Shown here: positions 37,382 through 47,437 of the stretch, piece by piece
How the letters are laid out: each line of letters begins with the position of its first letter
Position numbering within the stretch: the stretch's first letter is position 1
DNA from: Escherichia phage ELT1
Strand: one strand, 5' to 3'
DNA: 64,000 nt
Sequence record: MZ892903.1
Program-made: the position numbers and the translations under genes
Notes under the pieces: generated by a model
Told to the model about the DNA's origin: nothing
Seen by the model: only the letters and a program-made list of their open reading frames with translations
Database searches by the model: none

Positions 37382-37762
37382 TCAATTAGAAAATAAATTT
37401 ATCCAAGATTGTTCTTTAATTAAAAATGGCTCAGAATCATATGCCATTAAACTTTGGGTGATTAGTCCTTTAAAAGGCCCATCAATAAATTCCATGGTAA
37501 AATATGGAATTTTATTCATTAGCCGTGCATTAGGAGCAGTACACAAAACTCTGCATCCTTTGAATACGCCTTTTTGTAATTTGTATTGCTTAGGATAAAA
37601 TTCGCTCAAGACGTTGTTATTTGCCAAAATTTCAAAATGATTCACTAATTTATTTTTAATAGTTTTTGGCGAAAAATAAAGATATTCGAAAAGTTGCGTG
37701 TCTGTCATCATTGCATTCCGATTATGAAAAACTGTGGACGAGTAATACCACCAATGCAGCAT
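37382..37762 (-). CDS. hypothetical protein
   Basis: 126 aa ORF; overlaps the upstream ORF, start uncertain. Confidence 0.35.
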
Positions 37763-38295
37763 TTACTATTGCAACAGTGGTGCACAGTTTCAATATGAAT
37801 ATCGTAAATTTTATCCATATCAGGAGATTTGACAGGCTCATCAATTATATACAAAATCCGCGAAAGCGATAAACCTCTGAACTTGCTTCCTTTATTACCG
37901 ATAAAACTGCGCACAGAATCAGTAAATAAACGAAAACGTATATCATCATTAGAATAACGCGAAAATTCCTTTTTGATGCTATTTGCAGAAATTTTAGCGT
38001 AAGCTGAAGTATTAGAAAGAACAATAACTGTTCCACCGTCATACAACCAATTAGCGGCAAAATTAGTTACTGCAGTTGATTTACCGGATTGACGTCCACC
38101 ATCTAGTCGAAGTGTGCAATACTGCTTAAGTAAGTCTTCAAATGGCGGGATATAATCGTTTTTACAAATTTCTTCTACTCTAGCATCAGAATGGTGTGTA
38201 AAAGCATTCATCAGGGATAGATAAGGACCAGTTAAAAATGTTCTCATTTTGTTCTCTCTAGGTTTGGGCCATTCCATGGCGCATGAATTGTCCAT
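37708..38295 (-). CDS. small P-loop NTPase, function unknown
   Basis: 195 aa; Walker A GGRQSGKST and Walker B ILYIIDE. Confidence 0.5.
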   Translation of the reverse strand: MDNSCAMEWPKPRENKMRTFLTGPYLSLMNAFTHHSDARVEEICKNDYIPPFEDLLKQYCTLRLDGGRQSGKSTAVTNFAANWLYDGGTVIVLSNTSAYAKISANSIKKEFSRYSNDDIRFRLFTDSVRSFIGNKGSKFRGLSLSRILYIIDEPVKSPDMDKIYDIHIETVHHCCNSKCCIGGITRPQFFIIGMQ

Positions 38296-38388
38296 TTCTG
38301 TATTTACCCATTACCGCACTTGGGCTCGACCTTATTACAGGTTGGCGGGAATCCCTCACAGAATCATGAGGTCCAGGTTGTTCCCATA

Positions 38389-38862
38389 TTATTTGAACGA
38401 TTTAACGTACTGAATAGAACCTTTACTATTCACGAAAGCGATTTTACCATTTTTATTATACATGGTAGCAGTACGCTGATAGCCATAAGTTTGCTTACCA
38501 GATTGATAACCAACTAATGCAAAATTATCTTCACCCATTTTATTCTGTTTAGCGCGAATGCGTTCATGACCATGTGCCATAAGAACCTTAGCATCACCAG
38601 TTGCAATGGATCGACGAGTTTTTTCATCTTCAACTGTATTAACAAAGTCGTCAAATGAATCAAATTTAGCATGAGATTTATTATACAGTTTTCCATCTAC
38701 TGCATAATTATATCCCTGTACATCCATCTCAACTTCTGTACCATCATCCAATACAGCAGTGATTTTCTGTCCTTTTTTAAATTTCAAAAGATCAGTAAAA
38801 GATTCAGCAATAATTTGAGAATTAATAGCTGCTTCAGTAATAAATTCTTGATATGTTTTCAT
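38389..38862 (-). CDS. internal (capsid-injected) protein, variant ip gene
   Basis: 157 aa; N-terminal capsid-targeting sequence MKTYQEFITEA with prohead-protease site ITE/A; adjacent to lysozyme e. Confidence 0.6.
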   Translation of the reverse strand: MKTYQEFITEAAINSQIIAESFTDLLKFKKGQKITAVLDDGTEVEMDVQGYNYAVDGKLYNKSHAKFDSFDDFVNTVEDEKTRRSIATGDAKVLMAHGHERIRAKQNKMGEDNFALVGYQSGKQTYGYQRTATMYNKNGKIAFVNSKGSIQYVKSFK

Positions 38863-38921
38863 GTGTTTCCTTTAAATGTAAATATTTTAATTGGTAATTG
38901 TCTATTCAAGTAACTGTGAAT

Positions 38922-38950
38922 ATACTATCACAATTCTAAGAGAAAGTAAA
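38922..38950 (-). promoter_or_regulatory. T4-type early promoter (TTTACT-N17-TAGTAT)
   Basis: Consensus upstream of the ip gene. Confidence 0.5.
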
Positions 38951-38955
38951 CAGCT

Positions 38956-39467: not shown

Positions 39468-39488
39468 TATTTATAGAAGGTATTTATA
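39468..39488 (-). promoter_or_regulatory. two tandem late promoter boxes (TATAAATA) upstream of e
   Basis: Minus-strand TATAAATA at 39475-39468 and 39488-39481. Confidence 0.55.
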
Positions 39489-39490
39489 AA

Positions 39491-39946
39491 TTAAAAGAGG
39501 TTGTTCATTATTCGGTAAAGTGAAGGACCCATCACATATTGCCACTGAGTACGAGGAATAAGAGCAAAAGCGTCCATCTCTGGAATCATAACACCATCTT
39601 TATTTTCAAAATAAGACTCACAATGGCAATTTCTAAACATCTCATGCTCTACTGGAATCGTATAATAAAATAACTGTAAGTCTTTATTACTAGAATATTT
39701 AAATACACCTAGGTCTTCTAGAAGGTCTGGATTATAATTGCTAAAACCGGTCTCTTCTAAGCATTCTCTTTTTGCAGCTTCCAGTGCATTCAAATCAGAA
39801 CTTTCTACACGTCCCTTTGGAATATCCCAGCGATGTGCCATCATTCCAGGCTTACGAGAACCAGTAACCCGACCCATAAATAAATCTTTATCTTCTGTCA
39901 TGAAGATAATACCAGCTGATAATGTTTTCATTTTAATTTCCTGCAT
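39491..39946 (-). CDS. nudE: Nudix hydrolase
   Basis: 151 aa; Nudix box region (RECLEETGF). Confidence 0.8.
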   Translation of the reverse strand: MQEIKMKTLSAGIIFMTEDKDLFMGRVTGSRKPGMMAHRWDIPKGRVESSDLNALEAAKRECLEETGFSNYNPDLLEDLGVFKYSSNKDLQLFYYTIPVEHEMFRNCHCESYFENKDGVMIPEMDAFALIPRTQWQYVMGPSLYRIMNNLF

Positions 39947-44156: not shown

Positions 44157-44232
44157 TGGTGCCTCTAGAAAGATTTGAACTCTCACCATTAACCTTAGAA
44201 CGATTATATGCTATCCATTACACTATAGAGGC
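44157..44232 (-). tRNA. tRNA-Arg (anticodon UCU), CCA encoded
   Basis: Manual fold: acceptor GCCTCTA/TAGAGGC, anticodon loop GTTCTAA, T-loop GTTCAAATC. Confidence 0.75.
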
Positions 44233-44889
44233 AATTAAATTATTTACAATATCTTCTTTATAAACTTCAGCATAATGAAGTTCATATATTTCCCATCCTA
44301 ATGATTTTATAATATCATGGCGTTCTTTATAATAAGGGGCCAAAATCTTTTTCTTAGGATTGGAGTAATGTTGGTTTCCATTAACTTCAATAATAATCTT
44401 TTTATCTATTAAAGCAATATCCGCGCAATACGCTCGGTTTTTAACCGGTTGGTATTCTTCAATAAATGAAATTCCGTTTTCTATTAATTTAGATTTCAAA
44501 AATTCACAAGGCACAGATTTAAATTTTGTATTTTTCTTCCAAGGATGTTTATCGGGGTTTTCATTCAACCATTTTTTCCGAGCATTAGATATTTTTATTC
44601 TAGATTCCTCAGAGTGTTCTCTACCTAATGAAGCGGCTGACCATTTTTGTCTAGTCTCTTCCGAAATTACTACAGGAACACCAGTCTTTTTAGATACAAC
44701 ATACTGGTTTAAATTACCTGAAGCTATACGTGCTTTATTCATTGCTGCAATGGCTGATTTAGAACTTTCTTTATACAATTCCAATTTAGGGTTGGATTTA
44801 CACCATCTAGTGTGGTTAGCCATCCATCCTTTAGGTTTATTAGAAATATCAAATTCCATATTACAATGTTTACAAATTCTCATTACCAA
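44218..44889 (-). CDS. homing-endonuclease-like protein with Zn finger, NUMOD3 motif and C-terminal DUF559/Vsr-like nuclease domain (segB position)
   Basis: 223 aa; CKHC...HTRWC; SEETRQKWSAASLGREHSEESRIKIS; C-terminal YCADIALID...IIEVNG...GWEIYELHY. Confidence 0.55.
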   Translation of the reverse strand: MVMRICKHCNMEFDISNKPKGWMANHTRWCKSNPKLELYKESSKSAIAAMNKARIASGNLNQYVVSKKTGVPVVISEETRQKWSAASLGREHSEESRIKISNARKKWLNENPDKHPWKKNTKFKSVPCEFLKSKLIENGISFIEEYQPVKNRAYCADIALIDKKIIIEVNGNQHYSNPKKKILAPYYKERHDIIKSLGWEIYELHYAEVYKEDIVNNLIASIV

Positions 44890-44957
44890 TTATCTCCTAT
44901 AAAATATAGGAGTATTTATTATTTGGATAGAGCACTTAATTTACTTCGTTTAAATTA

Positions 44958-45029
44958 CTGGCGCACTTGGACTCGAACCAAGATAAAGGAGTTAACAGCT
45001 CCCCGTAATAACCTTTATACGATGCACCA
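44958..45029 (-). tRNA. tRNA-like gene, anticodon GUU (Asn) by manual fold
   Basis: T-arm CTTGG-TTCGAGT-CCAAG, anticodon loop CTGTTAA, acceptor TGGTGCA/TGCGCCA; no encoded CCA. Confidence 0.5.
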
Positions 45030-45035
45030 TTTGTT

Positions 45036-45110
45036 TGGTGACCCTGGCTGGTTTCGATCCAGCTACCTATCAGTTATGAGCTGACAGCTCTCCCATTGAG
45101 CTACAGGGCC
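45036..45110 (-). tRNA. tRNA-Ile/Met (anticodon CAU), CCA encoded
   Basis: Acceptor GGCCCTG/CAGGGTC, D-arm TAGCTCAATGGGAGAGC, anticodon loop CTCATAA. Confidence 0.75.
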
Positions 45111-45116
45111 TTGATA

Positions 45117-45189
45117 TGCTGATTGACGGAATCGAACCGCCGACGTCCTCATTACAAGTGAGGTGCTCTACCTACTGAGCTAAATCAGC
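45117..45189 (-). tRNA. tRNA-Thr (anticodon UGU)
   Basis: Acceptor GCTGATT/AATCAGC, anticodon loop CTTGTAA, T-loop GGTTCGATTCC. Confidence 0.75.
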
Positions 45190-45196
45190 GAAATTA

Positions 45197-45283
45197 CGGA
45201 GGCGATAGGATTTGAACCTATGAGTCGCCGGAGCGACTGCCGGTTTTCAAGACCGGTGCATTAAACCACTCTGCCACGCCTCC
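45197..45283 (-). tRNA. tRNA-Ser (anticodon UGA), long variable arm
   Basis: Acceptor GGAGGCG/CGCCTCC, anticodon loop CTTGAAA, extra arm, T-loop GGTTCAAATCC. Confidence 0.75.
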
Positions 45284-45285
45284 AG

Positions 45286-45359
45286 TCTCCGTGGCAGGAT
45301 TTGAACCTACGACATTCTGCTCCCAAAGCAGACGCTCTACCAAACTGAGCTACACGGAG
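45286..45359 (-). tRNA. tRNA-Pro (anticodon UGG)
   Basis: Acceptor CTCCGTG/CACGGAG, anticodon loop TTTGGGA. Confidence 0.75.
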
Positions 45360-45369
45360 TAAATTAAAT

Positions 45370-45443
<74 letters not shown>

Positions 45444-45448
45444 AAATT

Positions 45449-45535
45449 TGGTGCGAGAAGTGGGACTCGAACCCACAAGGAAATCATTCCGCAGCATTTT
45501 AAGTGCTGTGCCTTTACCAATTTGACCATTCTCGC
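45449..45535 (-). tRNA. tRNA-Leu (anticodon UAA), long variable arm, CCA encoded
   Basis: Acceptor GCGAGAA/TTCTCGC, anticodon loop CTTAAAA, T-loop GGTTCGAGTCC. Confidence 0.75.
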
Positions 45536-45536
45536 G

Positions 45537-45609
45537 CTGGGAATAAAGGACTCGAACCTTTGCATCTAGCAGTCAAAGTGCTATGCCTTACCAACTTGGC
45601 TAATTCCCA
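45537..45609 (-). tRNA. tRNA-Gln (anticodon UUG)
   Basis: Acceptor TGGGAAT/ATTCCCA, anticodon loop CTTTGAC, T-loop GGTTCGAGTCC. Confidence 0.7.
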
Positions 45610-47182: not shown

Positions 47183-47437
47183 TCAGCTTAAAATATGCTT
47201 GGCTTTAAACAAAGCAGTTTCTTCAGCAGGGGAGATAACGATTGTAGCACCATCTTTCTTAGCGGACCATCCATCACCCAGGTAAACAGTACCTTTGATT
47301 TCTTCGCCATCAACCAGACTAATCATTGGTTTACCTTCTCGTCCTTTATTTGCTTTAATAACTTCAGAAGTAAGAGTAGCCTCGGTAATGGTAGAAACCG
47401 GGGTAGTTGTAGAAGTAAATTCTTTGAAAGTTTTCAT
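47183..47437 (-). CDS. ipI: internal protein I-like (capsid-injected; T4 IPI inhibits a type IV restriction system)
   Basis: 84 aa; capsid-targeting sequence MKTFKEF...ITE/A; position upstream of 57B. Confidence 0.6.
   Translation of the reverse strand: MKTFKEFTSTTTPVSTITEATLTSEVIKANKGREGKPMISLVDGEEIKGTVYLGDGWSAKKDGATIVISPAEETALFKAKHILS

Follow-up and report, generated by a model that had tools for sequence, protein, structure and literature searches.

The ip4 gene

The window, a stretch of 64,000 nucleotides from Escherichia phage ELT1 (GenBank accession number MZ892903.1), was found to carry on its minus strand an open reading frame of 157 codons followed by a TAA stop codon at positions 38389-38862, as seen in the ORF list and in the sequence itself. 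It begins with ATG (translation MKTYQEFITEAAINSQ... = MKTYQEFITEAAINSQIIAESF...), and a Shine-Dalgarno region, TAAAGGAAA, was read from the sequence at 38866-38873 on the same strand, 5-9 nt 5' of the start codon. An earlier sequence-only reading of this DNA had reported a 157-aa frame starting MKTYQEFITEA at this place; the frame is indeed present, and its strand, missing from that account, is minus.

The predicted protein matches the Pfam family PF24183 (DUF7412) with an E value of 5.7e-96 and a score of 319.4 bits (cut-off 27 bits), residues 1-157 aligning with model positions 1-158, and is covered from end to end by PHROG 3155, 'internal virion protein' (E 6e-102). NCBIfam returned sub-threshold noise only. 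The gene with its flanks was matched by megablast in 733 phage records in all, at 100% identity in the Escherichia phage HY03 and the Salmonella phage SG1. The product is annotated in RB14 as 'Ip4 ... similar to T2, RB70 Ip4', in SA20RB as 'Ip4 internal head protein' and in RefSeq as 'internal virion protein', and the K3 protein (UniProt Q38388, included in the BFVD structure library) is 99% identical to that of the window. GenBank, RefSeq, UniProt, Pfam and PHROGs thus already list the gene as Ip4 or internal virion protein.

Codon-level comparison with the ip4 genes of T2, RB14 and SA20RB disclosed 9, 10 and 2 nucleotide differences, respectively, all of them synonymous, and 0 amino acid differences. 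Accordingly dN is 0, with dS of ~0.10 against T2 and RB14; for the neighbouring lysozyme gene e, dN/dS is 0.02-0.05. As the amino acid sequence is unchanged and dN is 0, the gene in the window is the T2 allele of an already named gene. The open reading frame at 38389-38862 is, by sequence, ip4, the internal head protein gene of T2-type Tequatroviruses, and the window is that of a T2/HY03-type Tequatrovirus. The gene had been described as a 'variant' internal-protein gene; this holds in that the body of the protein is other than that of IPII or IPIII, and does not hold in that no new variant is present, the protein being residue for residue the Ip4 of T2. ip4 is already known: it is named, is included in Pfam and PHROGs, and is carried by the classic phage T2.

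The locus between e and vs.8

Positions 39700 to 38831 of the window share 95.5% DNA identity with a T4 segment that passes from nudE through e and the e-ipIII spacer and ends 32 nt into ipIII. Homology to T4 DNA breaks off at 38831, directly 3' of the leader codons, and restarts at 38389, at the ip4 stop codon, which is aligned with the stop codon of T4 denV. From these breakpoints, the part of ip4 encoding the body of the protein (441 bp) replaces the ipIII body, ipII and denV of T4 (1441 bp). No tblastn match to ipIII, ipII or denV (endonuclease V, the UV-repair 'v' gene) was found anywhere in the 64-kb window.

The gene order is e - ipIII - ipII - denV - vs.8 in T4 and e - ip4 - vs.8 in the window, T2, RB14 and HY03. 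In Bas37 the slot contains e - denV - vs.8 with no internal protein gene, in Salmonella phage S16 it contains e - ip4 - orf - vs.8, and in Klebsiella phage vB_KpnM_Shark_ER15 it contains e - ip4 - denV - IPIII orthologue - 100-aa internal protein - vs.8. At least five arrangements of the slot (38296-38955 in the window) therefore exist in T4-like phages, those of T4, T2/HY03, Bas37, S16 and Shark_ER15. It is one of two variable internal protein loci, the other being located next to 57B; more than 30 variants of the internal proteins are known, and promoter/stem-loop elements at the two loci are likely recombination sites (PMC2839356).

In Shark_ER15 (L006, 3413-3985) the genes for Ip4, DenV, the IPIII orthologue and the 100-aa internal protein adjoin one another. 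The IPIII orthologue shares 88% identity with the T4 protein; for its neighbours lysozyme, NudE, DenV and Ip4, the identity to the coliphage counterparts is only 57-69%. This contrast suggests that ipIII has recently moved from one genus to another. In phage vB_EcoM_G4507 (L007, 2084-2558) ip4 is broken by a frameshift and annotated as two open reading frames of 39 and 120 aa; either the gene is naturally inactivated or the record contains a sequencing error. On the other side of ip4, the vs.8 homologue of the window is split relative to T4 Vs.8 (219 aa) into minus-strand segments at 38258-38359 and 37708-38295. A 33-aa open reading frame with a GTG start matches the N-terminus of T4 Vs.8 and the main vs.8 frame begins later; the annotated starts of vs.8 are not the same in HY03, RB14 and T4.

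The leader and its relation to T4 internal proteins

Codons 1-10 of ip4 (38833-38862, minus strand) encode MKTYQEFITE, a capsid-targeting sequence (CTS) with predicted cleavage between E10 and A11. Residues 1-11 are identical at 10 of 11 positions to those of T4 IPII and IPIII (MKTYQEFIAEA), and because the flanking DNA and the leader codons align to T4 the resemblance is one of homology and not of chance. The sequence-only reading had proposed a capsid-targeting leader with a protease site, and this proposal is borne out by both comparisons. The segment I8-T9-E10/A11 (the slash marks the cleavage position) fits the (I/L)-x-E motif of the prohead protease gp21, and M1, K2, F7 and E10 are kept at 90% or more in the Ip4 family. 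The same ITE/A tetrapeptide forms the processing site of T4 IPI, for which the 76 residues of the published IPI* imply a cut after residue 19 (PMC3012670). A CTS is by itself enough to package foreign proteins (PMC3012670), for which Mullaney and Black 1996 is also cited.

A possible second protease site, E20/S21, follows the I-A-E encoded by codons 18-20 (38803-38811, minus strand). E20 is kept at 90% or more, with I, L or M at P3 and S or A at P1', and the pattern recurs as LNE/S in the distant homologues P0016 and P0017. In an hhalign comparison, I18-A19-E20 is set on the TITE/A processing site of T4 IPI, the match being weak (probability 62%). Trimming at this second site is possible and would leave a mature Ip4 of 137 aa and 15.5 kDa.

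Beyond the leader, Ip4 is distinct from the T4 proteins. With 157 aa it differs from IPI (95 aa), and it is unlike IPII (100 aa) or IPIII (193 aa) in length, as had been noted in the earlier account. The Ip4 body without its leader gave no BLASTP match to T4 IPII (E 0.31) or IPIII (E 13). By hhalign, Ip4 matched IPII with a probability of 88%, a value driven by the leader, and IPIII with 63%. The alignment to the T4 internal proteins that had been suggested as a check was thus run with both methods and the body could not be aligned full-length to either protein. Ip4 was considered as an allele of IPII or IPIII and this was rejected, since the leader alone is clearly in common.

Other genes in the window

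One other open reading frame of the window has such a leader, namely ipI at 47183-47437 on the minus strand. Its product is identical to T4 IPI over 82 residues, after which a 2-nt deletion and nearby substitutions lead to ...HILS and a stop codon, so that it has 84 aa instead of 95; the DNA downstream still matches the 3'-end of T4 ipI, out of frame. In the published structure a C-terminal helix is placed at the lost C-terminus of IPI*, and the phage may therefore lack active IPI. Nine tRNA genes (Arg, Asn, Met/CAT, Thr, Ser, Pro, Gly, Leu and Gln) are located at 44157-45609 on the minus strand, compared with eight in T4, the extra one being tRNA-Asn. Between tRNA-Arg and tRNA-Asn there is a 223-aa open reading frame (44218-44889), in a place taken in T4 by segB, a homing endonuclease gene.

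Transcription signals

The spacer between e and ip4 includes a putative T4-early-type promoter at 38922-38951 on the minus strand, made up of GTTTAC (38951-38946), an 18-nt spacer and TAGTAT (38927-38922). The element is annotated in SA20RB as a T4 early promoter with 2 mismatches; a generic sigma-70 scan did not detect it, and the sigma-70 and terminator scans showed no enrichment. The ip4 spacer and leader together share 77.6% identity with the ipIII-ipII spacer and ipII leader of T4. A weak AT-rich hairpin with an 8-bp stem and an 8-nt loop (38912-38935, minus strand) overlaps the -10 element. It was seen in both the minimum-energy and the centroid folds, the e-ip4 spacer overall folding no better than shuffled sequences (z = -0.21), and an inverted match to the T4 ipIII-ipII spacer was found. 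The hairpin is the analogue of the promoter-early stem-loop at internal protein loci, and the spacer element fits the promoter/stem-loop elements published for these loci (PMC2839356).

Two exact matches to the T4 late-promoter motif TATAAATA (39468-39475 and 39481-39488, minus strand) lie immediately upstream of the lysozyme gene e, with 13 bp from one to the other, and are the late-promoter motifs nearest to ip4; the number of such motifs in the window is at chance level, and a putative late-promoter function is assigned to these two from their position. The e-ip4 interval contains no late-promoter motif and no predicted terminator. As no terminator is predicted in between, late expression of ip4 would probably occur by read-through from upstream of e.

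An early-type promoter directly upstream of ip4 and a spacer devoid of a late promoter are what would be expected if Ip4 were an early cytoplasmic accessory protein which inherited its leader by recombination and is not usefully packaged. This is highly improbable. The leader and its Glu are kept throughout the family, even in relatives with 34-36% identity, which is hard to explain if they have no function; moreover, T4 ipIII has the same spacer upstream and its product is packaged, and read-through from the late promoters upstream of e is available to ip4.

The Ip4 family and its conservation

The family is a small one: a search of 5.8 billion proteins gave 14 Ip4 clusters at 61-99% identity from T4-like phages, and a representative library added three distant full-length relatives (34-36% identity) and two fragments. 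All three distant relatives are metagenomic and start with the leader M-x-F-x-x-F-L-N-E-S or a similar one. A distant homologue on the 2.8-kb metagenome contig ERR14707364_71623 (L008, 181-654) is 36% identical to Ip4, belongs to DUF7412 and has the leader MNFEQFLNES, which shows that neither family nor leader is confined to the cultured Tevenvirinae. In the searches of 5.8 billion and 1.8 billion proteins no full-length homologue without a leader was found, and every named match was a T4-like phage protein. A protein of 1879 aa matched residues 35-54 of Ip4 alone, in eight stretches.

The Ip4 body was found by tblastn in 470 phage records, with 99% identity or more in 291 of them. In 159 further records the identity is 60-80%, Klebsiella and Salmonella phages being among the matches listed, and a distant homologue used as query also listed phages of Serratia, Erwinia and Proteus. 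Between genera, identities are 69-71% for Ip4, 64-66% for lysozyme and 57% for NudE. With at least 99% identity in 291 records and a lysozyme-like divergence, Ip4 does not evolve as fast as an arms race with hypervariable nucleases predicts.

These observations bear on the nature of the target. Injected Ip4 might have its target outside type IV restriction, such as a DNA glycosylase, a different defence family or a conserved host factor, which in the last case would have to be common to Escherichia, Klebsiella, Salmonella, Serratia, Erwinia and Proteus. The occurrence of orthologues with 61-75% identity in the e-adjacent slot of T4-like phages of several enterobacterial genera and their divergence at the rate of lysozyme agree with this idea. 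So does the presence of Ip4 together with an IPIII orthologue in Klebsiella phages, from which it follows that the two are not redundant. Tests of GmrSD variants were also negative: Silas et al. 2025 assayed 'ip4-10' against active GmrSD variants and observed no reproducible interaction, the ip4 of that study being equated with the gene of the window by the shared name. Nonetheless, nothing positive was found for any target of this sort, all characterised members of the class act on type IV restriction, and a small fraction of type IV diversity has been screened so far. A target outside type IV restriction is accordingly regarded as somewhat unlikely. In a related and still doubtful, if plausible, view, Ip4 would not be a further fast-evolving GmrSD blocker but an injected protein of long standing in the Tevenvirinae that changes slowly and whose target is conserved, whether a widespread defence of a different class or a core host function that meets the entering DNA. 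That view rests on its persistence next to e in phages of six or more enterobacterial genera, the lysozyme-like divergence and the dN of 0 among coliphages; if it is true, discovery of the target would open a new anti-defence mechanism.

Predicted structure of Ip4

The mature body, residues 21-157 (38392-38802, minus strand), is predicted to form a basic alpha/beta domain, with strands within 33-54 and 113-156 placed around helices within 70-103. The better AlphaFold2 model had a pLDDT of 83.8 and a pTM of 0.78; it displays a confident alpha/beta domain from about residue 21-27 to the C-terminus with a low-confidence stretch near 121-130, and residues 1-20 are of low confidence. Depending on the cleavage site, the predicted mature protein has 147 aa, 16.5 kDa and a pI of 9.1, or 137 aa, 15.5 kDa and a pI of 9.3.

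A profile search of the PDB with Ip4 gave nothing at E < 0.5, and comparison of the predicted structure with the PDB disclosed resemblance to generic small beta-barrels only, giving no clue to the target. The positions invariant across distant homologues are all G, K, N, A, L, Q, Y or T; H64, H99, D47, E111 and D112 are not invariant in these homologues and no enzyme-typical set of residues is kept. As His, Asp and Glu are missing from the invariant positions, Ip4 is probably a binding protein rather than an enzyme.

The composition of the body, with 22 K+R and a pI of 9.1-9.3, would also suit a mainly structural, charge-neutralising protein which condenses or ejects DNA and takes over the bulk role of IPII and IPIII, with no specific target. 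ip4 is the sole intact CTS gene seen in the window, which lacks ipII and ipIII and has ipI in truncated form, and lysines of internal proteins touch DNA phosphates in T4 heads (PMC3012670). Strong purifying selection, a divergence across genera like that of the housekeeping neighbours and the lack of a target in the GmrSD screens point in the same direction. Against this, ip4 is dispensable, as T4 and Bas37 are without it and G4507 has it frameshifted, all being viable phages. Furthermore, the ordered globular fold of the model and the invariant, surface-type motifs GYNY, NK, GYQ.GK and GYQRT appear to exceed the needs of a counter-ion, and T4 IPI-III were once held to be structural and all later proved to be specific inhibitors. 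A mainly structural role for Ip4 is therefore considered unlikely.

Proposed role of Ip4

On all sequence-level criteria, Ip4 belongs to the T-even internal protein class. Literature searches on Ip4 and DUF7412 yielded no functional, virion-proteomic or injection data, and its role is proposed here from the class. Following established T4 biology, the Ip4 precursor would be drawn into the prohead scaffolding core via its first 10 residues and trimmed by the prohead protease gp21 after E10, and perhaps a second time after E20. The basic mature protein of 15.5-16.5 kDa would then stay with the DNA in the head and be injected alongside it. After injection it would, by analogy, block a host defence directed against incoming glucosyl-hydroxymethylcytosine DNA, as a protein inhibitor that works stoichiometrically and not as an enzyme. 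The early promoter directly upstream of ip4 would supply fresh protein right after infection.

The whole proposal, that Ip4 is packaged, processed and injected and inhibits a defence acting on incoming DNA, is given a probability of about 0.6, resting in its last part on analogy. From the leader and its sites, Ip4 is very probably packaged, processed and injected. That it inhibits some type IV restriction system is put forward tentatively, by analogy with its class; the best guess for the target would be a type IV, modification-dependent system other than those tested. The rest of the probability is shared by a different defence or conserved host target and a mainly structural role.

The analogy is drawn from recent work. 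An anti-nuclease role, which the sequence-only reading had suggested, is the textbook hypothesis for all such internal proteins (PMC3012670), and from 2022 to 2025 every characterised injected internal protein was a specific inhibitor of type IV restriction. IPI inhibits GmrSD-CT596, Ip2 inhibits GmrSD-ECOR21 and Ip3 inhibits the GmrS1/GmrSD2 pair of ECOR17, each acting on one GmrSD variant without cross-protection (PMC12373910), and the CTS-bearing Bas37_0260 inhibits McrBC (bioRxiv 10.1101/2025.11.20.689424). As four of the four characterised CTS proteins are such inhibitors, the class provides a strong prior for type IV inhibition. The dispensability of ip4 also suits an accessory anti-defence gene. 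Against a simple transfer of this role to Ip4 stand the absence of a reproducible effect in the 'ip4-10' tests, the restriction of T2 by GmrSD-ECOR17 and GmrSD-ECOR21, the high conservation of Ip4 and a predicted fold that gives no hint of a target. Host immunity meets the injected internal proteins before any other phage molecule. The Ip4 sequence of the window adds nothing to what is in the databases: the protein is identical to that of T2, and the role proposed for it is the one usually assumed. Ip4 occurs in about 470 phage records including T2 and would be a sensible choice for screening.

Comparison with known systems

The ip4 genes of T2, K3, RB70 and RB14 are the same gene in the same slot between e and vs.8, and those of T2, RB14 and SA20RB show no difference of substance from the gene of the window, being distinguished by 2-10 synonymous nucleotides.

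T4 ipIII and ipII share with ip4 the e-adjacent locus, the promoter-bearing spacer and, at the DNA level, the 10-residue leader. The three proteins are all basic and presumably take the same route into the head and the host, whereas the bodies of IPIII and IPII are unrelated to that of Ip4 by BLASTP and marginal by hhalign. The GmrSD targets of T4 Ip3 and Ip2 are known and are not overcome by T2, an Ip4 carrier: T2 is restricted by GmrSD-ECOR17 and GmrSD-ECOR21 (PMC12373910), and the Ip4 encoded in the T2 record examined here is identical in amino acid sequence to the protein of the window.

T4 IPI, the precursor of the GmrSD-CT596 inhibitor IPI*, has in common with Ip4 a leader with I-T-E/A and a small, basic character, and IPI is globular. 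A weak hhalign match between the two covers the first ~49 residues, with the second Glu site and the first beta-hairpin.

Bas37_0260, reported in the HIDEN-SEQ preprint, is a different protein of 77 aa encoded at the other locus, on the ipI side, in a phage without ip4. It is nevertheless an internal protein absent from T4 that was recognised by its leader and proven to be anti-restriction, and an outcome of this kind may be expected for Ip4.
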